Shown here in pieces: positions 21,600-46,004 of a DNA stretch of 64,000 bases. The stretch is from positions 18,288 through 82,287 of the forward strand of contig JBAQNM010000008.1 of NCBI GenBank assembly GCA_049303795.1, in the 5' to 3' direction. The notes beneath the pieces are model-generated. The model searched no databases. It saw only the letters and a list, made by a program, of their open reading frames with translations, and was not told the DNA's origin. This stretch comes from Candidatus Moraniibacteriota bacterium. GTDB taxonomy: Bacteria > Patescibacteriota > Minisyncoccia > Moranbacterales > UBA2206. Position numbers and translations under genes: made by a program. Every line of letters begins with the position of its first letter. The first letter of the stretch is position 1.

Positions 21600-22015
21600 A
21601 ATTACCTAATTATTTCATCTATTCCATCCTGTTTATAAAAAAGTTTGAATCCCACTCGGATATCCAAAATAAAAGCTTATGTAAAGCATTTGATATTTTG
21701 GCTTATTTTATTTTTTGGAACCGTGATTATTGGCTATAAAAAAGTAAAAGGCCACTCAAAATCAGTGGCTTTATACACTAGCTCCGAAGCCTGGAAGAAG
21801 TCCGAACCGCTTTGAAAAAAGAAGGAGCAACAAATTGCCACAGTGGCAGATTAGGTTAATTAACCCAGAGTAGGACTAATCGCCACTTGTTTGCCCGTGT
21901 GTCAAACGATTAAGCAAAAATGGCAGACTTGCCCAATAGGGAGAAATCAACGCGATCGTGAGCAAAATTTGAATCCCGATAAAATGCCTCGGTAAAGGCC
22001 TTTTTTGGTTATGTA

Positions 22016-22061
22016 TTGACAATATTTTTGCCACATGATATTATGTTCCCATAATGGGAAC
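22016..22061 (+). promoter_or_regulatory. Sigma70-type promoter (TTGACA-17-TATTAT) followed by a 17-bp palindromic operator overlapping the higB start codon
   Basis: ttgaca 22016-22021; tattat 22039-22044; gttcccataatgggaac 22045-22061 is a perfect inverted repeat containing ATG 22054. Confidence 0.6.
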
Positions 22062-22359
22062 AATTACACAGTCAATAATAATGAATATCCTCGGTAAAGA
22101 AAAATTACATGCTTTCAAGCAAAGGCACGCTGATGTCCGTTCACAGGTAGATGCCTGGGAGGCTGAAGTGGCTATAGCAAAGTGGTGTACGCCACAAGAC
22201 ATAAAACAGCGATATGCCAGCGCCAGTTTTTTGGCAGATAACATAGTAATATTTAACTTGAAAGGGGTAAGGTATAGATTAAAAACAAAGGTTAATTATC
22301 CATATGAAGCAGTACTAATAATGAACGCTGGAACACATAATGAATATACGCGTTGGTAA
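22054..22359 (+). CDS. higB: Type II toxin HigB-family (RelE/ParE superfamily) mRNA interferase
   Basis: C-terminal KGVRYRLKTKVNYPYEAVLIMNAGTHNEY resembles the HigB core (…IAFIDFRFKKIFVKHIVTHAEYDK); 7-nt overlap with the downstream HTH gene. Confidence 0.65.
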   Translation: MGTITQSIIMNILGKEKLHAFKQRHADVRSQVDAWEAEVAIAKWCTPQDIKQRYASASFLADNIVIFNLKGVRYRLKTKVNYPYEAVLIMNAGTHNEYTRW

Positions 22360-23582
22360 TAACAAGCAAAACTATGACAACTAAAATTAAGGTTATCAAA
22401 ACTGAAGAGGATTACCAAGGGGCTCTCAAGATGGTTGAAGAGCTAATGGACAAAAATCCCGACACCAATTCAGAAGACGGCGAAAAGCTGAGTCTTCTAA
22501 TAACATTGGTTAAGGATTACGAGTCTAAATCTATCCCTGAATCTTTACCTGATCCAATTGATGCGATCCTATTCAGGATGGAACAGCAGAATCTAAAACC
22601 ATCAGATTTAGTACCTTATATTGGAAGCAGAAGCAAAGTTTCTGAAATCCTTTCTCGCAAACGCCCACTAACCCTTTCAATGATAAGATCTCTTGAGGCT
22701 AACTTAGGTATTCCAGCTAAAGTCCTTCTGAAAGAATCAGATGAATTTAGAAATGCCGAGGATATTACATGGAATAGGTTTCCATTAAATGAAATGAAGA
22801 AACGTGGATATTTCAATGATTTACCAAAAATAACAGATATAAAGGTACTGATGGAGAATTTTTTTCAACCCATTGGATCTCCCATGCAGCTTGCTGGAAT
22901 GCTTCGTAAAACAAATTACAGATCAACTAGGCCAATGGATAAGCATGCGCTGATTGCTTGGTCCGCAATGATTGTAAAAAAAGCCAACGAAATAAAATCA
23001 GTTAAAAAATTTCAAAAAGACACTGTCAACTTGGACTTTATGCAAAAGCTGGCGAAACTAAGTGCTGAGGAAAATGGTCCTCTTCTTTCTCGCGATTTTC
23101 TTGAGAAACATGGAATCATACTAATAATTGAGCCACATTTTCCACAAACTTATCTTGATGGTGCAGCATTAATGCTTCATGGAAAAAATCCCATTATAGG
23201 GTTAACTCTTAGATATGATCGCATTGATAATTTCTGGTTTAATTTAATGCATGAATTGGCACATATAGCGCTACATTACGATGATAATTCAAACTTTTTT
23301 TATGACGATTTAGAAAATTCAGATCTATCAAATACAAAAGAGAATGATGCAGACAAATTAGCATGCGAAGCCCTTGTTCCTGAAAACAAATGGATCAATA
23401 GTTCTGCAAGACTAATCTCCATGCCTATAGCCGCTGAAAGTTTAGCAAAAGAATTGGGAATACACATAGCCATTGTGGCTGGGAAAATGAGACGCGGGGG
23501 TGATAAATATATTTATTTAAATAACATAATCAATCAGGCTAAAATCAGGACATATTTCCCTGAAATATCCTGGAAAAAATAA
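22353..23582 (+). CDS. HigA-like XRE HTH antitoxin domain fused to ImmA/IrrE-family (DUF955) zinc metallopeptidase domain
   Basis: HTH region SDLVPYIGSRSKVSEILSRKRPLTLSMIRSLEANLGIPAKVLL; C-terminal HEXXH NLMHELAHIALHY. Confidence 0.65.
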   Translation: MVITSKTMTTKIKVIKTEEDYQGALKMVEELMDKNPDTNSEDGEKLSLLITLVKDYESKSIPESLPDPIDAILFRMEQQNLKPSDLVPYIGSRSKVSEILSRKRPLTLSMIRSLEANLGIPAKVLLKESDEFRNAEDITWNRFPLNEMKKRGYFNDLPKITDIKVLMENFFQPIGSPMQLAGMLRKTNYRSTRPMDKHALIAWSAMIVKKANEIKSVKKFQKDTVNLDFMQKLAKLSAEENGPLLSRDFLEKHGIILIIEPHFPQTYLDGAALMLHGKNPIIGLTLRYDRIDNFWFNLMHELAHIALHYDDNSNFFYDDLENSDLSNTKENDADKLACEALVPENKWINSSARLISMPIAAESLAKELGIHIAIVAGKMRRGGDKYIYLNNIINQAKIRTYFPEISWKK

Positions 23583-23583
23583 T

Positions 23584-24681
23584 ATGTCTGATTCAAAAAT
23601 TTACACACCCATATTAAGATGGAAGGCTGCTGAGAAAGAAGCTCTCCAAGAGCTAAAGGATGAAAATAAAAACTTCATTATTCCGCTATTGGAACTGCTG
23701 ATGCCTCAACCAAAAAAAGCGAAAAAGGGAGAAGCTCCAAAAGTGCAGAGTCCAGCTGAACTACTCATGGAATCAGTAGAAATTTTTGAGTCAACATCGA
23801 ATGAAATAGCACAAGATATCAAAAAACATTGGGGAAATAAACATTTCTTTTTAGATTTCAAATTATTGCATGCACCAATTATATTAGAGGGATTAAAAAA
23901 TGTACTAACTACGGGCGATAGCGCAGGCATCTCAACAATACCGGTAATGCATTTGAGTTACGATGCTGATATTAAAAATGGCATCATTTCACTAGTAAAA
24001 AAGCATAACGCTGAATTATGCTTGAGATTGTCACGATCTGATATAAGCGAAGATTCCATTGCAACTAAAATCAACGAGTTTCTGAAAAGCTATGATTTGA
24101 AAGAAGAAATCATACATTTAATAGTTGATCTAAAAATCACGGACGAAGATTATTCTACGCTTACTGGCAAGATTAACAGCATTCCTAATATAAATAAGTG
24201 GAAAACATTTGCTATAGCGAGTGGCGCTTTCCCTCCGGACTTAACACAATTCACTACGCCCGATTTATACCGAATACCTCGTACAGACTGGACAAACTGG
24301 GTAAATTTAATAAAAAATCTTACAAGGAAACCCTCCTTCGCAGATTATACAATTCAGCACCCTATTTATAAAGAACCGACTGGCAATGTAAACCCGAGTG
24401 CGAGCATAAGATACACAACCCATTCCGAGTGGATGATTATGCGAGGCAGAGGCTTGCGTTCACCAAAAAGTGGTGGATTTGCTCAGTATCCACCACAAGC
24501 GAAACTACTATCAGACCAGCCAGAATTTGCTGGTGCAGGTTTTTGTTTTGGCGATGATTATATCGAAGAAAAAGGTAAAGATATACATACGAAGAAAACT
24601 GGAACTCCAAGAACCTGGTTGCGAGCCGGAATTAATCGACACTTGGCATGCACTGTAGCTCAGATCGCCAGTTTAACCTAG
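23584..24681 (+). CDS. Uncharacterised protein, possibly Beta-protein (sce7725-like) family; third gene of the higB operon
   Basis: Starts 2 nt after the preceding stop; N-terminal YTPILRWKAAEKEALQEL resembles the Beta_protein family opening. Not verifiable without an HMM search. Confidence 0.4.
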   Translation: MSDSKIYTPILRWKAAEKEALQELKDENKNFIIPLLELLMPQPKKAKKGEAPKVQSPAELLMESVEIFESTSNEIAQDIKKHWGNKHFFLDFKLLHAPIILEGLKNVLTTGDSAGISTIPVMHLSYDADIKNGIISLVKKHNAELCLRLSRSDISEDSIATKINEFLKSYDLKEEIIHLIVDLKITDEDYSTLTGKINSIPNINKWKTFAIASGAFPPDLTQFTTPDLYRIPRTDWTNWVNLIKNLTRKPSFADYTIQHPIYKEPTGNVNPSASIRYTTHSEWMIMRGRGLRSPKSGGFAQYPPQAKLLSDQPEFAGAGFCFGDDYIEEKGKDIHTKKTGTPRTWLRAGINRHLACTVAQIASLT

Positions 24682-25303
24682 AGCGCAATTGCTCCCTGAC
24701 TATCTCTTTCAAGGTTTTTTTATCCAAAACTTCAGCTAGCCTCTCATATATAGCTTTTCTATTTTTTGAACGCATGCCTTTGTCCTGTCCAATTTTTTCT
24801 AAAATCCCCAGCGCCTCTTCTCTCCATAACAGTGCTGCGACAGCCGCGCTGTTTTGATTTTTATTTTGTTCAGCCTCTCTTATCTTGCAAAAAGAAACTG
24901 CGTTATTTGAATCTACAATTTTTGCAATTGTTATGCCCCACCAATCAGGAACTATTTTTATTGCTTCGTGCAAATGATTTTTACCCACCACTAATGTCAC
25001 TCTGTCGAGAACTGTATTGTATACTTCAATTTGACCAGGTAATCTCTTGAGGGTATCTTTGTCACTTTTTAATTCATAGCCATGAATAACACCGTTAACA
25101 ACGGCAATATCAATACGAGCCTCGCCATGAGTAAGTCCCAGTTCTTCAATTATCTTCGTATTTTTAAGACTTCCATAAGACTCTTCCAGTTTTTCTTTGA
25201 GCGCAGTTCGAATCATCCTATCATTCGTAAGAATAAAATGTTGACTATGTATTTTAGGCAACTGTTTTTTCATATTTTGTTTTTGTATTATTTCTTTTTT
25301 CAT
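24632..25303 (-). CDS. sce7726-like protein with PD-(D/E)xK nuclease-type motif
   Basis: GEARIDIAVVNGVIHGYELKSDKD carries D...E-x-K spacing typical of PD-(D/E)xK; 3' end overlaps the convergent gene by 50 nt. Confidence 0.4.
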   Translation of the reverse strand: MKKEIIQKQNMKKQLPKIHSQHFILTNDRMIRTALKEKLEESYGSLKNTKIIEELGLTHGEARIDIAVVNGVIHGYELKSDKDTLKRLPGQIEVYNTVLDRVTLVVGKNHLHEAIKIVPDWWGITIAKIVDSNNAVSFCKIREAEQNKNQNSAAVAALLWREEALGILEKIGQDKGMRSKNRKAIYERLAEVLDKKTLKEIVREQLRSRLNWRSELQCMPSVD

Positions 25304-25354
25304 TATAACAAATAAAATAAAAAAATGACACTAAAAATATCCTTGCTAATTGGT

Positions 25355-26275
25355 TTATTTTGTAATGAAATCCAATGCCCCTTTTTCAATCATATCGAGT
25401 GTAAGAAGATAATCATTATGATTAAAGGTTTCTCTCAATGGACGCTGTGTAGTTTTCCAACCATTGCCGTCAGTAATCCAAATAAATTTATACTTTCCAT
25501 CCAATACATCAAAGAGGTTCCTATATTCGCCAGCCGTAGATTTCAGCTTTGAACCACCGCCTCCATAAAAATTAGTCTCAAAAATAAATAGCTCTTTACC
25601 ATTTTTAACAACAAAATCATATCTCCGGGAGGACTTATCAACTGGCACATCAAAGCCCCATTGAGCTTTAATTTTTCCAGCAGTCGCTTCTTTGAGATAT
25701 TCAAAGCCATTTCTCTTACATAAATCACTGATGAAGAATTCGACTATATCTTCCATGTAATGCCCGCTCCTATTTTTTCGTCCATTACTATCAAGTCCAG
25801 CCTCAACGCCAATCATATAGTCGACAAGATTTTTTATTTTCTGAGATATAATCAAATCCTTCAATCCTGATTCCTTAACAAATTTAAGATATTTTTCCAC
25901 ATCTTCATCGGTCGGATTTTCCTTACTAAAATCATACTCCTCATAAACAAATTTTTTGTGCTTGTAATCAACAAGAATTTTGAAACTTGCACTATTGCCT
26001 CCATCCCTGACCACTAAGGCAGGAATGGCTTTTATGGCTTCGGGGTTTTGTTTGACTAGGAATCTAAACTCCTCATCAAAGTTTTCCTTGCCAACTAAAT
26101 AATTCAGGTTATTCAAAGCAAGCTCAATTTTCTTGGTATTTTCAAACACCTTGTCCCAATTCACAAAATATGACCACAGCAGAATACTTGGCTTAATGTT
26201 TTTAATAAGGCAATCAAACACTTCGTCATTACTATTGCAATTTAATGTGTTCCTGTAAAAATCTAGGTTTTTCAT
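25355..26275 (-). CDS. Type II restriction endonuclease, DpnII/MboI family (GATC specificity inferred)
   Basis: N-terminal LWSYFVNWDKVFENTKKIELALNNLNYLVG resembles the DpnII family start (…DFPKVY…ALN.MN.LIG); last gene of the methyltransferase operon. Confidence 0.55.
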   Translation of the reverse strand: MKNLDFYRNTLNCNSNDEVFDCLIKNIKPSILLWSYFVNWDKVFENTKKIELALNNLNYLVGKENFDEEFRFLVKQNPEAIKAIPALVVRDGGNSASFKILVDYKHKKFVYEEYDFSKENPTDEDVEKYLKFVKESGLKDLIISQKIKNLVDYMIGVEAGLDSNGRKNRSGHYMEDIVEFFISDLCKRNGFEYLKEATAGKIKAQWGFDVPVDKSSRRYDFVVKNGKELFIFETNFYGGGGSKLKSTAGEYRNLFDVLDGKYKFIWITDGNGWKTTQRPLRETFNHNDYLLTLDMIEKGALDFITK

Positions 26276-27090
26276 TGTATTGTTTTTAGTTGATTAAACC
26301 TTTTTATTGATAAGTCTAAATACTTTTTTTCCAAGTCTATTCCGATAAACTTCCTCCCGTGTTTCACTGCTGCAATCCCTGTCGTCGAGCTTCCCGCAAA
26401 CGGATCTAACACGACATCGTTCTTGTTTGTACTTGCCAGAACAACCCTATTGAGCAAATCCAACGGCTTCTGTGTTGGATGCTTTCCGAAAAACTTCTCT
26501 TCTTTCTTAGGGGTATTGATTGACCAAACAGATCTCATTTGCAAACCACTCTTTTTCATTTGGTCTTCAGGCCACTCACCATTTTTCATTAAATCATAAT
26601 TGAAGATATGACCAGCTTTTTGGTCTTTTCGCGCCCAAAGCAGTGTTTCATGACTTGCAGTAAAAAAGCGACAGCTCAAGTTTGGTGATGCATTTGGCTT
26701 AAACCAAGAAATATCATTAAGGATTCTGAAGCCATGCTTTTGAAGCGCAAATCCGCATTGATAGATTGAATGGTATGTTCCGCTAATCCAAATAGTTCCA
26801 TGAGGCTTCAACACTCTCCTGCAGGCCTCAATCCAAGACAAGTGGAAATTAAAATCATCCTCAACTCCTTTACTCAAATCCCAGTCTCCCTTTTTAACAC
26901 TAACCATTTTTCCATTCTGACATGTAAATGTTCCACTTGAAAGGAAATACGGCGGATCCGCAAAAATCATATCGATTGAACCTTCCGGCAATTGACTCAG
27001 CAACTTCAAGGCATCGATATTATAAAGAACAAAATTATCTGCCTTAAAAAATGGCTTTTCTTTTACTGATGATAATATCTTGTTAGCCAT
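26272..27090 (-). CDS. DNA methyltransferase (N6-adenine/N4-cytosine type; DpnA-like second methylase)
   Basis: DPPY motif IFADPPYFLSSG; SAM-binding motif I-like FAGSSTTG near C-terminus (beta-class order). Confidence 0.75.
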   Translation of the reverse strand: MANKILSSVKEKPFFKADNFVLYNIDALKLLSQLPEGSIDMIFADPPYFLSSGTFTCQNGKMVSVKKGDWDLSKGVEDDFNFHLSWIEACRRVLKPHGTIWISGTYHSIYQCGFALQKHGFRILNDISWFKPNASPNLSCRFFTASHETLLWARKDQKAGHIFNYDLMKNGEWPEDQMKKSGLQMRSVWSINTPKKEEKFFGKHPTQKPLDLLNRVVLASTNKNDVVLDPFAGSSTTGIAAVKHGRKFIGIDLEKKYLDLSIKRFNQLKTIQ

Positions 27091-27104
27091 TTTTATAATT
27101 TATC

Positions 27105-27956
27105 CTAGTAATTCAAAATCAAAAGCTCTTTAATTTTTCCTCTTCCGCTAGCTTTGCAGTTAATCGCCCTATTTGCCATGACAGTCTCACGACGGTATTT
27201 TTTATATATTTCATTGATGAATGGCGTGTGCGAATTACTCAACATCACATAGCAGCCTCTTTTATCAAGTTCATCAAAAACATTCCTGAGTTTCAGCTGA
27301 TCTTCTTTTGTAAAACTATCCTTGTGATAACTGGTAAATTTAGCTGTTTCAGTTAATGGATGATATGGCGGATCGAAGTAAACAAAATCTCCTTTCTTTG
27401 CTTCTGCAACAGCTTTTTCAAATGAAACAGATGTTAACTTTGTATGTTTTAAAACTTTTGAAACTAACAAGATATTTTCTCTATCAAGAATGGTTGGATT
27501 TTTTGCCTTTCCAAATGGAGTATTAAAACCACCTTTTGAATTTTCCCTATACATCCCATTGAAGCAAGTCTTATTTAGAAAAATAAGATAAGCACTCTTT
27601 TTTAGTTCAGTATTCGATGTATTGTTAAATTTATCTCTTATTTTATAGAAAAGCTCCTTTTGGTTTTCTTCATTTCCATTTTTATATTCATTCTCTAACT
27701 TCTTAAGAATCTTCATTACTTCCTCAGGCTTATTTTTTATATTCTTATATGTAGAAATAAGCGTTGCATTGACGTCATTTATGTGAGCTTTTGTCGGGCT
27801 CAAATTAAAAAACAAAGCGCCACCTCCAATAAAAGGCTCAAAGTAATTATTGAAATCTTTTGGATAGTATTGTTCAAATTGAGACAATAACTGAGCTTTG
27901 CCACCAACCCACTTTAAGAAAGGTCTAGCTTGAATGTCTTTATTTCTTGGAGTCAT
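27105..27956 (-). CDS. Dam-family N6-adenine DNA methyltransferase (DpnM-like)
   Basis: LKWVGGKAQLL N-terminal SAM motif; DPPY VYFDPPYHPL. Confidence 0.8.
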   Translation of the reverse strand: MTPRNKDIQARPFLKWVGGKAQLLSQFEQYYPKDFNNYFEPFIGGGALFFNLSPTKAHINDVNATLISTYKNIKNKPEEVMKILKKLENEYKNGNEENQKELFYKIRDKFNNTSNTELKKSAYLIFLNKTCFNGMYRENSKGGFNTPFGKAKNPTILDRENILLVSKVLKHTKLTSVSFEKAVAEAKKGDFVYFDPPYHPLTETAKFTSYHKDSFTKEDQLKLRNVFDELDKRGCYVMLSNSHTPFINEIYKKYRRETVMANRAINCKASGRGKIKELLILNY

Positions 27957-27964
27957 GATTTTTA

Positions 27965-28189
27965 TTATTTAATTAGCTCCTCAAGGGGTTCCTTGAAGGC
28001 ATCGGCAATCTTTTTTATAGTACTAATTCTTGGATCCGGAGTCCGCCCACTCTCGATTTTTGCAATGGTGTGATAATCAAGCCCTGTTTCCCTAACCAAG
28101 TCACTCTTGGAAAGATGATTCTTTTTTTTGAGCCTTTTTACATTCTTTGCGATTTCAGAACATGCCTTATTTAGTGCTTCTTTTTTCAT
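27965..28189 (-). CDS. XRE-family HTH protein (putative controller of the RM operon)
   Basis: 74 aa, HTH LSKSDLVRETGLDYHTIAKIESGRT; first gene of the co-directional RM operon. Confidence 0.55.
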   Translation of the reverse strand: MKKEALNKACSEIAKNVKRLKKKNHLSKSDLVRETGLDYHTIAKIESGRTPDPRISTIKKIADAFKEPLEELIK

Positions 28190-28573: not shown

Positions 28574-30367
28574 CTAATCATTCAATTTGTCAGCTAATTT
28601 ATTCTGTTCCCTAAATAGTGTAGCATCTCGATCAATCAATCCCTGCTCTTCAGCACTAAGCCATTGATTTGTTTCCATTTTGGATAATATCATTCTTGCA
28701 TTTGAAATCCTTTCTGAAATTATAGAGTTTATCCGATTAATATCCTTTTTATGTTCCTTGTAATAAATATCGTATTTCTTCAAATCCTCCCAGCCTGGTT
28801 TTATTTTCTTCAGATCAGAAACAGTTGATCTCCAGGAATCAATATCTGACTGCTTGTAATTCGGTGGCGAATAACCTGCCAAATGTTGAATAATTACTTG
28901 AGTAGGGCAACCATTCATTTCTCCTCGCACAACCGCAACTCCAATATCCTGGTACTCCTTACTTAAAATAAATTCTTTGGATTCCGGAAATTCAAACTGA
29001 TTTTCTATAAGCTCTTCGGAGCTATAATATCCCTGTGTTGGTAATTCTCCATAAACAATATTTGAGTATCCAGCATCACGCATGGCTTTTTTCATACCAT
29101 AACCACTCTTGTCGGCATCAAAAGAAAAATCGGCATATTTCAATATGACATCACCTCGAAGCTTGGCTGATTGTTCGAGTCTTGATTGATATTTTAATGG
29201 TGGCAAGCCTACTTCTTTACGTTTTTCATTTACTAAATTTGTATATTTATTTGTATCTAAAACAACAAGAGAGCTGTTATCAAGGTCATGAGTAGTATCG
29301 CGCCAATTTTTATCAAGCTTACCATGCTGTTTTTCCAAGGGAATGACATTGAGTATATCGTCATAATCAATAACACCTAATTTTGATCTAGAATCTTGGC
29401 TAGCCTTTCTATTATCTCCCATTACAAATATTTTTCCTTCCGGGATTGTTATTGGTTGGCATTCTGAAAAGAATTGACTGCCAAGCGTAGATCTTGGTTC
29501 GGCTATGTAAGGCTCCTTTTGGGGTATATTGTTTAGATAAAAAATTCTATCCCTGATTTCAATAGTATCACCTGGTAAGGCCACTACTCGCTTAATGTAG
29601 CTAGTGTCTTCTTTAGATAGTTCTTTGACCATATCATTTGAAAAAACCACAATATCTCCGCGCTTAATTTCATATGAAAAGAATTTCTGTCCCATAAATT
29701 CAATGCCTGACGGATACGTTATTGTTCTTGTGGGTAAAGTTATTTTTTCAGAATTTTCATCATCTCCCTTCGGAAATGTTGGATACATTGATCCACCCGA
29801 AACCATTATTGGAGAAATCATTTGACCTGTTCTGGTGCCAACAAACCAAGCTGTTGCAATATAGCCACCAATCCACATTGGCAAAATGATGATAAAAGAT
29901 ACAAAAAAAGCTCCTGATTTAAGAGCAAAAGTTTTAAATTTGAATTCTTTCCAATATTGTCTAATACCAAGAGATTTCAACTTTCTAAATAATTCAATTG
30001 GCTGCAAGATATTCCATAAAAGAAATATTGGTAAAATTGTTAGAATAAGAGCAGCTTTTATACATGCAGATATTGGATTATTTTTTGTAATATTTTTCCC
30101 TTGCAATTTATAAGTAATTGCGATTAGTCCAACACTAAAAGAAATTACGCCCATCACAACAGCAAGGACAAGCATCAAAATGTGTGTATTTGAAATTTGA
30201 GTGGCTGTTTTGTTTTCAATCAAAATAAAAATACCAACAAATGCCAGTACACAAAGAAACCAAAATGAAAAAGAAGTTAGAACCAGAGGCGAAAGTTTAT
30301 CTTTTAATTTCGTTATTTTCATAATCAATCTCAATTCCATAATCGTACCCCTCCATGGCTGGAACAT
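28574..30367 (-). CDS. Membrane-anchored signal peptidase I (S26) domain fused to a C-terminal CAP (SCP/PR-1-like) domain
   Basis: Several N-terminal TM helices; SPase boxes VSGGSMYPTFPKGD, YIKRVVALPGDTIE, VMGDNRKASQDSR; C-terminal CAP-like region (GYSNIVYGEL..., HLAGYS). Confidence 0.55.
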   Translation of the reverse strand: MFQPWRGTIMELRLIMKITKLKDKLSPLVLTSFSFWFLCVLAFVGIFILIENKTATQISNTHILMLVLAVVMGVISFSVGLIAITYKLQGKNITKNNPISACIKAALILTILPIFLLWNILQPIELFRKLKSLGIRQYWKEFKFKTFALKSGAFFVSFIIILPMWIGGYIATAWFVGTRTGQMISPIMVSGGSMYPTFPKGDDENSEKITLPTRTITYPSGIEFMGQKFFSYEIKRGDIVVFSNDMVKELSKEDTSYIKRVVALPGDTIEIRDRIFYLNNIPQKEPYIAEPRSTLGSQFFSECQPITIPEGKIFVMGDNRKASQDSRSKLGVIDYDDILNVIPLEKQHGKLDKNWRDTTHDLDNSSLVVLDTNKYTNLVNEKRKEVGLPPLKYQSRLEQSAKLRGDVILKYADFSFDADKSGYGMKKAMRDAGYSNIVYGELPTQGYYSSEELIENQFEFPESKEFILSKEYQDIGVAVVRGEMNGCPTQVIIQHLAGYSPPNYKQSDIDSWRSTVSDLKKIKPGWEDLKKYDIYYKEHKKDINRINSIISERISNARMILSKMETNQWLSAEEQGLIDRDATLFREQNKLADKLND

Positions 30368-41754: not shown

Positions 41755-42909
41755 ATGATCTCAGGAATGCCCCAAAACGAACTGAAGAAGATGGAAAGAT
41801 CAGCAGAAAGCGTAACGCCAGGCCATCCGGACAAAATCTGTGATAGAATGGCAGACATGTTCGTTGATGAATGCATGAAAGCAAATCTCGACGTCGCCCC
41901 CAATAAAATGGTCGGGCGTATGGCGGCTGAGGTTACCGGAGGACATGGAGAAGTCTATGTCACCGGTGAATGCCGGATTGCAGGAGCGGAAACACAGGAA
42001 GATCTCCAGACTTTTATCGGCGGATGTGAAAAAAATATCAAAGCCATTTACAAAGAGATCACTGGATGCCAGTTGAACCACGTTCGCCTGAATATGGTTC
42101 CTCAGTCGGCAGATATTGCCGCTGGTGTTGACATTGGCGGCGCAGGAGATCAAGGAGTAATGATCGGGTATGCAACAAATGAAACGCCCGAAATGTTACC
42201 CAGACCTTTTCTGCTGGCCAGAAAAATCACCAAGGCACTCTATGCAGAAGCCATGAATAACCCTGATACCTGGATGCAAACTGACGGAAAGTCAGTGGTA
42301 ATCATGCGCAATGGAACAGTCGCTTCAGTTGTCGTGGCCATTCAACACAAAAATGGCAACGATAAGGAAGCAATGACGGAAGATTTACTGAAAAGGATCG
42401 TCATGCCCGTTCTCGGATACGCACCAACTCGTTTTGTCGTCAATGGCGCAGGAATATTCTGCATCGGCGGGTTCGAGGCCGACGCCGGCACAACCGGACG
42501 TAAATTGATTATTGATAACTACGGTCCCGAACTGCAAATCGGCGGCGGAGCATATTCCGGAAAAGATGCAACCAAGGTTGATCGGTCAGCAGCATACATG
42601 GCTCGTTATATTGCCAAAAATGCTGTAGCCCATGGGATCGGCGGATCGGAAAAAGTTACCGTTCAGTTTGCCTACGCCATCGGAATTGAACAGCCCGAGG
42701 CTATCATTGCAATCAACCAGAAAGGCGTCGACATCTCCGGATGGGTACGACACAACTTCGATCTCAGTCCCAGAGGCATCATTGAACGCCTGAATCTCTG
42801 GCGTCCGATATATCAGGAAGTCTGTACCGGCGGCCATTATGGCCTGAACCATGAGGCGTCAGACAAATTGGACGTCTGGACATGGGAAGATATTGACCCT
42901 TCACTTTAA
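41755..42909 (+). CDS. metK: S-adenosylmethionine synthetase
   Basis: GHPDKICD, GAGDQGVMIGYA, TGRKLIIDNYG, GGGAYSGKDATKVDRSAAY MetK signatures; GC-rich relative to surroundings. Confidence 0.8.
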   Translation: MISGMPQNELKKMERSAESVTPGHPDKICDRMADMFVDECMKANLDVAPNKMVGRMAAEVTGGHGEVYVTGECRIAGAETQEDLQTFIGGCEKNIKAIYKEITGCQLNHVRLNMVPQSADIAAGVDIGGAGDQGVMIGYATNETPEMLPRPFLLARKITKALYAEAMNNPDTWMQTDGKSVVIMRNGTVASVVVAIQHKNGNDKEAMTEDLLKRIVMPVLGYAPTRFVVNGAGIFCIGGFEADAGTTGRKLIIDNYGPELQIGGGAYSGKDATKVDRSAAYMARYIAKNAVAHGIGGSEKVTVQFAYAIGIEQPEAIIAINQKGVDISGWVRHNFDLSPRGIIERLNLWRPIYQEVCTGGHYGLNHEASDKLDVWTWEDIDPSL

Positions 42910-42921
42910 AGGAGAATCACC

Positions 42922-44241
42922 ATGACAAACAAAAAACCCACCGACCAGAACAGAAGTATGATGGGCATGCGCAGCGCCGACACCGGTAATTGGGGTGTTG
43001 GCACTTCAATCTTACATGCAGGTTACGACGCAGACAGATCCGAAGGAGCAGCAGTTGTACCATATTTTCCATGCTCAACTTATGCCTTTTCTTCGGCAGA
43101 AAAAGGAGCCGAGGCATTTGAGCTGGCGTTAGCCGGCAGTAATGAAGGTGAACTGATCTACGCTCGGGTAAACCACCCGAATGCGCAGATACTGGAGGAT
43201 CGATTGAAATATATCGAGCCAGGTACTGACACGGCATTGATTTTCAATTCGGGAATGTCAGCCATCTTCACAAGCATACTGGCACTTCTACCAAAAGAAA
43301 AGACCTTGGTCTTCTCTGATCCGCTTTACGGAGGAACGTATCATTTTTTTGAAACCATTCTGGGCCAAAAGTTCGGCTATAATGTGCAGATGGTCGACAC
43401 GAGTGATATTGAGAAAACCGGAAAGCTTTTTGCGGAAATTGGGTCAAATCTGGGTATGGTGTTTTTGGAAACACCAGCTAACCCAACCCTGAGGATGACC
43501 GATATTAAACTGGTTGCAAAGATGGCAAAAACAGCTAATCCGAATTGTTTTGTTATGGTGGATAATACCTTCTTGGGATTATTCCAAGCCGTATTCAAAA
43601 TTTCGCGAGATGTTGATTTTGTCGTTTACTCAGCGACCAAATACATCGGCGGTCATTCCACGGTGGTGGCAGGGGCTCTTATGGCCCGAGAAGAAATGCG
43701 CACCCATATTCCCAGCATTAAAGAAATGCGCATCATGGCTGGAACGATTCTGCCACCATACGAAGCATGGACATTGCTTCAGCAGATCAAAACCTACCCC
43801 ATGCGTATGAGAAAACAGGCCAAAAATGCGACTATTATCGCAAAGGCCTTGCAAAAAAATCAATTCGTAAAGAAAGTCATTCATCCATCTCTCCTGACGG
43901 AAAATGACCCGGCATACGAAATTTATAAAAGGCAGTGCACTGGTCCCGGAGCGATAATTTCTTTTTATCTCTACAAAGATCAGCGCAAATATGCCTCCCT
44001 CTTTCTTGACGCAGTTAAGCAAACAAATATCATCATGATGGCCGTTTCCCTTGGTGGGGTTGAAACATTAATCGAACACCCCGCCTCGATGACCCATAGT
44101 GAGATGCCACCGGAAGTGCAACGCAAAAACGGAATCAGTGAGTCGCTCATTCGATTGTCCGTTGGCATTGAAGACCCCGAGGACATCATCGCTGCCCTTA
44201 TCGGATCACTAAACATCATTGATTTTATTGGTCTCGGCTAG
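42922..44241 (+). CDS. PLP-dependent Cys/Met metabolism enzyme (O-acetylhomoserine sulfhydrylase/methionine gamma-lyase family)
   Basis: SATKYIGGHSTVVAGAL (PLP-Lys region) and overall MetY/MetC-like fold signature. Confidence 0.7.
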   Translation: MTNKKPTDQNRSMMGMRSADTGNWGVGTSILHAGYDADRSEGAAVVPYFPCSTYAFSSAEKGAEAFELALAGSNEGELIYARVNHPNAQILEDRLKYIEPGTDTALIFNSGMSAIFTSILALLPKEKTLVFSDPLYGGTYHFFETILGQKFGYNVQMVDTSDIEKTGKLFAEIGSNLGMVFLETPANPTLRMTDIKLVAKMAKTANPNCFVMVDNTFLGLFQAVFKISRDVDFVVYSATKYIGGHSTVVAGALMAREEMRTHIPSIKEMRIMAGTILPPYEAWTLLQQIKTYPMRMRKQAKNATIIAKALQKNQFVKKVIHPSLLTENDPAYEIYKRQCTGPGAIISFYLYKDQRKYASLFLDAVKQTNIIMMAVSLGGVETLIEHPASMTHSEMPPEVQRKNGISESLIRLSVGIEDPEDIIAALIGSLNIIDFIGLG

Positions 44242-44339
44242 GAAAAGCTGGACCAAAATTAAAATCAATAAAAAAACAATCTTAAAGAGGGGGTGCGATC
44301 TTTGTATCGCTCCCCCTTCATTATTAAAAGGAGGTGCTC

Positions 44340-46004
44340 ATGAACAGAAATGTTTTAATTGCTAAGGCCTGGCCATATGCCAATGGTCCTTTGCATATTG
44401 GACATCTGGCAGGACTACTCGGTGCCGATGTCTTGGCGAGATATTTTCGCCTGGCCGGAGACAACATACTATTCGTATCAGGAACCGACTGTCATGGAAC
44501 GCCCATTATGAATCGGGCGATTGACGAAGGAATCAACCCTGAAGATGTTGTTAAAAAATACCACAAACAATTCACCGAGTGTTTTCAGAGATTAGGCTTT
44601 ACTCATGATCTCTACACGCTCACCTATACACCGGAACATCACAAGATGGTGCAGCAAATTTTTCGCAAGCTTCATGAAAAAGGACATCTCGTTCCCAGAA
44701 ATGAAATTCAGTTATTCTGTCCGGACTGCAATCAGTTTTTAGTGGATAGGCTGGTTGAAGGAAATTGTCCCTATTGCCATGAAGCAAATGCGCGCGGAGA
44801 TCAATGCGATGCTTGCAGTAAAACCTACGAAGCCATTGAACTTCTTGACCCGCATTGCAAAAAATGCGGTCAAGCTGCGGAAAAAAGAGCATCGGAACAT
44901 CTGTATTTTGATTTGGCCAATTTTTCAGAACAACTCCAGAGCTGGTCTTCTCAAGTTAACGGTCAGTGGAGAGAAAACGCCAAAAGCGTTACGCAAAGCT
45001 GGCTGGACAGCAACTTGCACGACAGGGCGGTTACCCGTGATTTAGAATGGGGCATCGATGTCCCCGTTCAAGGTTTCGAGAAGAAAAAAATCTATGTCTG
45101 GTTTGATGCGGTATTGGGTTATTTAACAACCTCCATTATTCACTGCGGCGGCGATATTGAAAGCGGCCCGTGGGAAAAATGGTGGCGCCCAAATAAAGAC
45201 CTGCTTCATTACTACGTTCACGGGAAAGACAATATTCCCTTCCACACAATCATCTTTCCGGCAATGCTCATGGGACTTGGAAACCTGGAGCTGCCCACCC
45301 ACATTATTTCATCTGAATATCTTAACCTGCCGGCTGGTCACAAATTCTCCAAGTCTTCCGGCTACGGAGCAACCCTACCTCAATTCTTTGATCTGGTTGA
45401 TTCGGTCGAAGCTCTTGAAGTGGATTCAATGAGATTCTTCTTGATCATCCGTGGTCCGGAAACAAAAGATTCCCATTTCTCATGGGAAGATCTGACAATG
45501 CTTCACAACTCCGAACTGGTTAATAAATTCGGCAATATTGTGAGCAGAATTACAAGTCTGATCTCGAATAAATTCGATAATTCTGTTCCGAAATCATCAG
45601 ATCGCTCTCATGAACAAATCGCCTTATTGGAAAAAGTGGCCATAGCATATCAGGCCACTGGTGAATACATTGAAAAAGGTGAGTTTCGCCTGGGCTGTCA
45701 GACAGTCATCGAACTGATAAGGGAGGCCAATAACCTGATCAATCTGGAAGAGCCCTGGAAACAAATCAGTCTTGATCCGCAAAAAGCAATGGACACGCTA
45801 AACACATCAGTGCAGGTTTTGTTTAATCTGCGAACATTGCTCGAACCATTTATTCCATTTGCGGCGCAAAAATTAACCGAGATATTGAATGCCTCATCCA
45901 TTCCAAAGCAGTGGAAAATGCAAATACTGCCAAATGGCTGGAAACTGGGTGAAAACAATCACATCTTCACTCGAATTAAAGAAGACCAACTGCCGAAAGA
46001 ATAG
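44340..46004 (+). CDS. metG: Methionyl-tRNA synthetase
   Basis: HIGH motif PLHIGHLAG; zinc knuckles CPDC...CPYC...CDAC; KMSKS variant HKFSKSSG; RBS aaaggaggtg. Confidence 0.9.
   Translation: MNRNVLIAKAWPYANGPLHIGHLAGLLGADVLARYFRLAGDNILFVSGTDCHGTPIMNRAIDEGINPEDVVKKYHKQFTECFQRLGFTHDLYTLTYTPEHHKMVQQIFRKLHEKGHLVPRNEIQLFCPDCNQFLVDRLVEGNCPYCHEANARGDQCDACSKTYEAIELLDPHCKKCGQAAEKRASEHLYFDLANFSEQLQSWSSQVNGQWRENAKSVTQSWLDSNLHDRAVTRDLEWGIDVPVQGFEKKKIYVWFDAVLGYLTTSIIHCGGDIESGPWEKWWRPNKDLLHYYVHGKDNIPFHTIIFPAMLMGLGNLELPTHIISSEYLNLPAGHKFSKSSGYGATLPQFFDLVDSVEALEVDSMRFFLIIRGPETKDSHFSWEDLTMLHNSELVNKFGNIVSRITSLISNKFDNSVPKSSDRSHEQIALLEKVAIAYQATGEYIEKGEFRLGCQTVIELIREANNLINLEEPWKQISLDPQKAMDTLNTSVQVLFNLRTLLEPFIPFAAQKLTEILNASSIPKQWKMQILPNGWKLGENNHIFTRIKEDQLPKE

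Follow-up and report, generated by a model that had tools for sequence, protein, structure and literature searches.

Do four closely packed genes in the small genome of a Candidate Phyla Radiation (CPR) bacterium make up one defence system, or has a nuclease gene merely come to lie against an operon with which it has nothing to do? The genes were found in a 64-kb stretch of a Candidatus Moraniibacteriota contig (the window, to whose positions all coordinates refer); A, B and C run on the plus strand and D faces them on the minus strand. The original prediction had read them as a defence module composed of a HigB toxin, a fusion of a helix-turn-helix (HTH) domain to a peptidase, a large protein of poorly characterised family and a nuclease. 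By homology, the locus unites a member of the PD-lambda-2 family with one of the P4 cII family, and we consider it highly probable that it represents a PD-lambda-2-type cassette with the cII-like gene D as integral fourth gene. We also favour, with clearly less assurance, a fuller reading in which the whole would be a self-contained four-gene anti-phage cassette of the abortive-infection type, a PD-lambda-2 operon plus a convergent cII-like nuclease gene, working as proposed below.

Families of the four proteins

PD-lambda-2 was obtained by functional selection from Escherichia coli ECOR42 as a system of three genes, whose products are a HigB-like protein, a peptidase that has a HigA-like HTH fused to it, and a relative of P4 beta (Vassallo et al., 2022; PMC9519451). 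Proteins A, B and C match the PADLOC models of this system in order, which bears out the defence or abortive-infection architecture proposed earlier. Protein A aligns over its full length with PD-Lambda-2_A from residue 10 onward (E = 9.5e-38), and its assignment to the HigB family is confirmed by Pfam HigB_toxin (PF09907, E = 3e-19). Residues Y65, R66, Y73, G84, H86, Y89 and W92 are invariant among 78 sequences of protein A, which keeps R66, H86 and Y89 in a GTH.EY motif.

Protein B matches PD-Lambda-2_B with E = 5.8e-149 (residues 9-404 against profile positions 2-398 of 402) and Pfam Peptidase_M78 with E = 6e-6 (26.5 bits against a cutoff of 22). Its HELAH zinc motif (residues 293-297, nucleotides 23250-23264) is invariant at H293, E294 and H297 in 17 sequences of the family. 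A profile made from protein B and 16 homologues (alignment A1) was searched against solved structures and matched E. coli HigA (5ycl/5ifg, E = 1.6e-10) over approximately residues 8-115 (nucleotides 22395-22718). Pfam gave no HTH match in the N-terminus even at E <= 10; this search of solved structures by itself ties protein B to HigA. The predicted fusion of a HigA-like HTH to an ImmA/IrrE HEXXH domain therefore holds, and A and B show the hallmark of a type II HigBA pair, a HigB-family toxin with an adjacent HigA-type antitoxin. Protein B additionally shows weak matches to PADLOC capP (1.1e-4) and to RmrA models; the match of the B profile to solved CapP was not significant (E = 0.4).

Protein C had been associated with a Beta-protein/sce7725-like family, and only the first half of that assignment stands. 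It matches Pfam Beta_protein (PF14350) with E = 1.6e-54 and both PADLOC PD-Lambda-2_C models (E = 8.2e-45 and 1.7e-34), and more weakly the PADLOC 'beta' model of gop-beta-cII (1.2e-7). The NCBIfam sce7725 model gave no match at E <= 10 for protein C, nor for P4 beta or the beta protein of E. coli strain C. The predicted fold of protein C is a TIM barrel that matches generic TIM barrels only; TGT and DpdA, considered as specific relatives, were rejected when they scored no better than other TIM barrels. Searches of solved structures with the sequences of proteins C and D returned nothing significant. Among viral models, the sole clear structural match to protein C was gp33 of Gordonia phage Powerball.

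Protein D matches NCBIfam sce7726 (NF033832, E = 7.8e-54, 182.4 bits against a cutoff of 70), Pfam Phage_P4_cII (PF26915) and the PADLOC model 'cll', the cII component of P4 gop-beta-cII (E = 3.3e-30). In the P4 record, gop and beta share one orientation and cII converges on them; the RefSeq name of cII is 'sce7726 family protein'. Protein D is predicted to have a PD-(D/E)xK restriction-endonuclease-like fold, with D55 (25109-25111), E67 (25073-25075) and K69 (25067-25069) of its invariant D...ExK motif as candidate catalytic residues. These results uphold the earlier description of a sce7726-like protein with a D...ELK signature, and hidden Markov model searches support the families Beta_protein and sce7726 of the original prediction.

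Linkage of the nuclease gene to the operon

Annotation tools would call a three-gene PD-lambda-2 at this locus and leave the cII-like gene an orphan. Whether that gene belongs to the cassette was judged from 80 related loci anchored on B, taken from species-representative genomes of at least 15 phyla, with B identities of 45-74%. The hosts include CPR lineages, Planctomycetota, Gammaproteobacteria, Bacteroidota, Acidobacteriota, Chloroflexota, Nitrospirota, Armatimonadota, Omnitrophota, Atribacterota and others. Profile searches of six-frame open reading frames recovered A in 77 of these loci, C in 78 and D in 73. Gene D was present in 73 of the 74 loci with enough sequence, always convergent to gene C; six of the seven loci without it stop at a contig end, and the seventh (L073) is also without most of gene C. 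In every one of the 73, the tails of C and D overlap, by 26-101 nucleotides (nt) and most often by 50 nt (36 loci). All of these overlap lengths equal 2 modulo 3, which argues that the dual-coded overlap has been inherited and not re-invented.

A second sample, of 80 loci in viral contigs anchored on gene D (21 lineages at 90% identity), showed the same pairing. An adjacent convergent beta gene was found in 77 of the 80, and A or B in none. The viral beta and cII genes overlap in 75 of 77 cases, by 11-140 nt and again with lengths equal to 2 modulo 3; the other two pairs are separated by gaps. Annotated examples of such stand-alone pairs are the 'CII phage-like' and 'beta' genes of Rac-SA53 and gp32/gp33 of Powerball.

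Were gene D unrelated to the operon beside it, whether as the final gene of the adjoining DpnII operon or as a gene on its own, the four-gene grouping would be a matter of chance. Gene D does lie 51 nt past the DpnII stop codon on the same strand, and both PADLOC and DefenseFinder define PD-lambda-2 with three genes. Yet DpnII adjoins the cassette in 0 of 80 related loci, D follows C nearly wherever there is room for it, and their overlap keeps a single phase in 73 of 73 loci. The pairing also recurs in P4, Rac-SA53, Powerball and the viral loci, and the B-anchored loci, with the phyla and identities given above, are not one recently spread clone. The co-occurrence data exclude chance adjacency, to which we assign next to no probability. 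The cassette is thus an autonomous four-gene unit whose adjacency to DpnII is specific to this genome, and we regard gene D, with strong confidence, as an integral part of it. Conservation of the neighbourhood, a point on which the original prediction could have failed, has turned out clearly in its favour.

Some details of the locus differ from its first description. The longest open reading frames lie where they had been placed (22054-22359, 22353-23582 and 23584-24681 on the plus strand, 24632-25303 on the minus strand), with a convergent C/D overlap of exactly 50 nt. Because the PADLOC profile aligns with A from residue 10 and the ATG at 22054 is within the conserved palindrome described below, gene A probably starts at ATG 22081, giving 92 residues. 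Translation of gene B from ATG 22374 yields a 402-residue protein with a full-length, 100% match to an NCBI protein from a Candidatus Moraniibacteriota metagenome-assembled genome. With this start, A and B are separated by 14 nt, and the reported 7-nt overlap was an artefact of the longest frame. The ATG of gene C (23584) is one base past the stop codon of gene B (23580-23582). Gene D probably starts at ATG 25273, giving 213 residues, since its homologues have 206-213 residues and a TATAAT box covers the upstream ATG.

Table 1. Features of the cassette and of the adjoining DpnII-type operon, with positions in the window.
Feature	Position	Strand	Description
Sigma-70-type promoter of A-B-C (predicted)	22016-22044	+	TTGACA 22016-22021, 17-nt spacer with TG, TATTAT 22039-22044
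Operator palindrome TGTTCCCATAATGGGAACA	22044-22062		Perfect 9+1+9; core TTCCCA-N3-TGGGAA; abuts -10 box
Gene A (probable start)	22081-22359	+	HigB-like, predicted RelE fold, 92 residues; longest open reading frame from 22054, inside palindrome
Gene B	22374-23582	+	HigA-like HTH fused to ImmA/IrrE (M78) metallopeptidase, 402 residues
Gene C	23584-24681	+	P4 beta family, 365 residues, predicted TIM barrel
Gene D (probable start)	24632-25273	-	sce7726 / Phage_P4_cII family, PD-(D/E)xK nuclease-like, 213 residues; longest open reading frame to 25303
C/D dual-coding overlap	24632-24681		Tail to tail, 50 nt
Candidate promoter of gene D	25302-25331	-	GTGTCA, 18 nt with TG, TATAAT; in gap past DpnII stop
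DpnII endonuclease	25355-26275	-	
Second N6_N4 methylase of DpnII operon	26272-27090	-	
Dam-family methylase of DpnII operon	27105-27956	-	
HTH controller of DpnII operon	27965-28189	-	

The restriction-modification (RM) system noted earlier beside the cassette is indeed there, as a complete DpnII-type operon (25355-28189, minus strand); its absence from all related loci speaks against its being part of the system. The placement of the cassette inside a mobile element was not borne out either: within about 10 kb there is no integrase or transposase domain, no nearby tRNA was found, and the only repeats are short, AT-rich chance ones. No fifth conserved gene was found in the flanks of the related loci. 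The most frequent flanking family is a large serine recombinase, within 3.5 kb in 9 of 70 loci and on either side, and may hint at a way of moving. Farther along the window, a 597-residue protein (28574-30367, minus strand) carries a signal peptidase S26 domain and, at its C-terminus, a CAP (cysteine-rich secretory protein) domain, which is an unusual fusion. GC content rises to 0.44-0.49 at 42001-46000 compared with about 0.35 elsewhere (open reading frames at 41755-46004), and no rRNA or other Rfam family was found in this stretch.

Operator, beta variation and proposed working

The predicted promoter of A-B-C scored 11 of 12 in a consensus scan, as the top promoter-like site of the region, and its TTGACA/TAnnnT pair recurs at the same place in related loci. 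Control of this promoter by a palindrome had been proposed, and the palindrome proved to be both perfect and conserved. When the core TTCCC-N5-GGGAA was sought with at most one mismatch within 130 nt upstream of gene A, it was present in 68 of 76 related loci, immediately downstream of a -10-like box. Across the other 854 kb of those loci there are 38 scattered matches, and the 64-kb window contains a single one, so that conservation of the operator exceeds chance. The HigA-like HTH of protein B is presumed to bind the palindrome, and autorepression of the operon by that domain would be the natural consequence. Upstream of gene D, the operator was sought in related loci and not found, the remaining matches being scattered. 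Gene D needs its own promoter because its upstream neighbour differs in every related locus; the candidate in the window scored 10 of 12 in the consensus scan, as a pattern match only. Upstream of the cassette promoter lies a non-coding stretch of about 415 nt (21600-22015) with several short hairpins, for example GGCCACTCAAAATCAGTGGC at approximately 21751-21770 and TGCCACAGTGGCA at 21836-21848.

Of the four proteins, C diverges fastest. Its median identity to the window protein is 36%, compared with 55% for B, 54% for D and 48% for A, and it has the lowest identity of the four in 63 of 65 loci. Variation is concentrated in central residues 46-200, with both ends conserved. Nucleotide identity to the closest locus (L001) is 80-88% over gene A and the start of B, 45-59% over C and 70-85% over D, a mosaic of the kind expected if C were a specificity element that is swapped or quickly diversifies.

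The evidence extends as far as homology, gene linkage, conserved catalytic residues, the conserved operator and experiments on distant relatives, and from it we propose the following working. A dimer of B would bind the TTCCCA-N3-TGGGAA operator abutting the -10 box and keep the operon autorepressed, and A and B would hold each other inactive in a HigB-HigA-like complex. The fast-diverging beta protein would recognise a phage product. The metallopeptidase of B might then be activated to cut B itself or a partner, as ImmA, IrrE and CapP act on their HTH repressors; by this analogy, cleavage of the cognate HTH repressor would be signal-dependent. The operon would be derepressed and the HigB-like RNase set free, so that translation stops and the cell arrests. 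The cII-like nuclease could be a second effector or else a sensor of DNA. We regard this specific order of events as tentative, and it is rather unlikely to be right in all its steps.

Several points weigh against this reading. The related locus of E. coli strain C is distant from that of the window (42% identity for B, 22% for C) and has no cII. The ECOR42 clone that defends reaches just 396 nt past C and leaves room for less than a whole cII gene, which makes cII dispensable for the activity of the E. coli system against lambda-vir. In E. coli it is B that is toxic and A that rescues, a poor fit to a simple scheme with HigB as the toxin (PMC9519451). The beta fold, a generic TIM barrel in which many polar residues are invariant, suits an enzyme as well as a sensor. 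Finally, binding of the palindrome by B, cleavage by B and defence by the subfamily of the window are all things that we infer.

HigB/HigA ancestry also invites the explanation that the locus is a selfish module of the toxin-antitoxin addiction type, or what is left of a domesticated prophage or satellite, kept by post-segregational killing and having no anti-phage role in its host. A-B pairs are common on plasmids, the cassette has been transferred horizontally across many phyla, and phages of this CPR lineage have not, to our knowledge, been characterised. We nevertheless judge this explanation improbable. Here the cassette adjoins an RM system, and alleles of beta turn over between otherwise similar cassettes, as would be expected of a part that meets phage proteins. 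Both related systems, moreover, defend against phages (PMC9519451; PMC9122126).

A rival that deserves more weight places the immune function elsewhere in the cassette, and it draws on the occurrence of the parts apart from each other. HigB and HigA-peptidase pairs of about 40% identity occur without beta on plasmids. Some A-B pairs lie next to DUF6527, ThiF-like and multiubiquitin genes, on a Neorhizobium plasmid (L095, 683-4643) and a Paraburkholderia plasmid (L081, 3693-5919), which suggests that defence cargo of other kinds can also have the A-B pair as its front end. A P4-like satellite of E. coli QDFD216 (L085, 3791-6971) carries as its four-gene hotspot cargo a 227-residue protein with a weak GNAT-like match, a 300-residue ImmA/IrrE protein, beta, and a convergent sce7726 gene that overlaps beta by 23 nt; this cargo looks like an intermediate between gop-beta-cII and PD-lambda-2. 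In E. coli strain C (L084, NZ_CP029371.1, 4573-8784), HigB, ImmA/IrrE and beta genes are followed by a convergent SIR2-family gene (505 residues), which an integrase adjoins. This form was found in 4 of 5426 complete E. coli genomes, and SIR2 in the position of cII may be either an effector swap or a separate defence gene.

According to this rival, beta and cII are the real immune core, a TIM-barrel enzyme or sensor with a nuclease effector. HigB and the HigA-peptidase would then be only a front end, regulatory or for addiction, that can be exchanged; like CapH/CapP or ImmR/ImmA in fused form, it would derepress its cargo on a signal of damage or infection. Such a division would account for the beta-cII pairs of 77 of 80 viral loci, Rac-SA53 and Powerball, which have neither A nor B, and for A-B alone or beside other cargo (DUF6527/ThiF/multiubiquitin, AbiE). 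It also agrees with the resemblance of B to the capP and RmrA models, with a conserved operator that points to a transcriptional switch, and with the other front ends seen on the same pair, gop in P4 and the two upstream proteins in the P4-like satellite. The E. coli PD-lambda-2, on the other hand, defends without any cII; its B is toxic alone and is neutralised by A, which is toxin-antitoxin-like and not the behaviour of a plain regulator; and the invariant RelE-type residues of A suggest a role beyond regulation. We therefore keep this division of labour as a possible but not a likely alternative to the four-gene abortive-infection cassette, in which the HigB-like RNase would itself act as an effector.

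Comparison with known systems

The three-gene operon (PD-lambda-2, 2022) and the pairing of beta with cII (P4 gop-beta-cII) are already known, so the original suggestion that the combination was undescribed applies only to the union of the four genes. In the literature searched we could not find this union, or a constant four-gene form with a phase-locked overlap; nor could we find a shared beta-cII core of the two named systems, a hypervariable beta or a conserved operator. No link between PD-lambda-2 and cII/sce7726 was found there, and the search on Beta_protein/PF14350 returned only irrelevant papers. Gop was considered as a relative of A or B and rejected for want of any similarity: none of the four window proteins matched PADLOC gop, and P4 Gop found nothing in the 160 related loci.

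Judged from sequence, the cassette is a HigB/HigA-peptidase front end on a beta-cII pair that is also the core of gop-beta-cII; two separately named defence systems share a two-gene core. Going further, PD-lambda-2 and gop-beta-cII might form one superfamily. An ancient beta-cII core with a dual-coding overlap would serve phages and prophages as a two-gene immunity module in its own right, onto which front ends were plugged (Gop, HigB/HigA-peptidase, or a shorter peptidase with another partner). cII would be the overlooked effector of most PD-lambda-2-type systems, and the variable centre of beta would set the phage that is recognised. We offer this as a speculative proposal, plausible though short of probable. 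Among environmental bacteria, the cassette almost constantly has the nuclease gene as its fourth member, and the mechanism of PD-lambda-2 may have been studied in an atypical, reduced form. The variable region of beta and the conserved operator offer testable handles on sensing and regulation, and the locus documents a complete defence cassette beside an RM system in a small CPR genome.

With PD-lambda-2 the window shares the same three proteins, their order, orientation and tight coupling, and matches to all three PADLOC models. It differs in its host, a CPR bacterium, in the low identity of B (42%) and C (22%) to the E. coli strain C proteins, and in that its subfamily has a constant convergent cII/sce7726 gene (73 of 74 loci), which the E. 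coli form is without. The E. coli system defends by abortive infection; its B alone is toxic and is rescued by A, and its C is dispensable for neutralisation and needed to defend against lambda-vir (PMC9519451). P4 gop-beta-cII (Ghisotti, 1990; Rousset et al., 2022) is an anti-phage system with toxin-antitoxin-like behaviour: it gives protection from lambda and P1, and in the absence of beta its Gop protein is toxic (PMC9122126); the toxicity is triggered by the phage accessory protein orf184 (bioRxiv 10.1101/2023.04.06.535777). As in P4, beta (PF14350) is followed in the window by a convergent cII (sce7726 / PF26915), with HigB and the HigA-peptidase fusion in place of Gop. Protein D is 26.5% identical to P4 cII, and in P4 the two genes do not overlap, being separated by a 27-nt gap with an annotated terminator. 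In the temperate-phage pairs of Rac-SA53 and Powerball, beta and cII are convergent and overlap at their 3' ends in the same phase as in the window, with 38-48% identity for D; the viral stand-alone pairs differ in having HigB and peptidase genes in 0 of 80 loci. Protein B, finally, resembles ImmR/ImmA, DdrO/IrrE and CapH/CapP in combining an Xre-type DNA-binding domain with an M78 HEXXH peptidase, and in a palindromic operator at the controlled promoter, but it fuses both functions in one protein, with a HigA-like DNA-binding part and a HigB-like partner.

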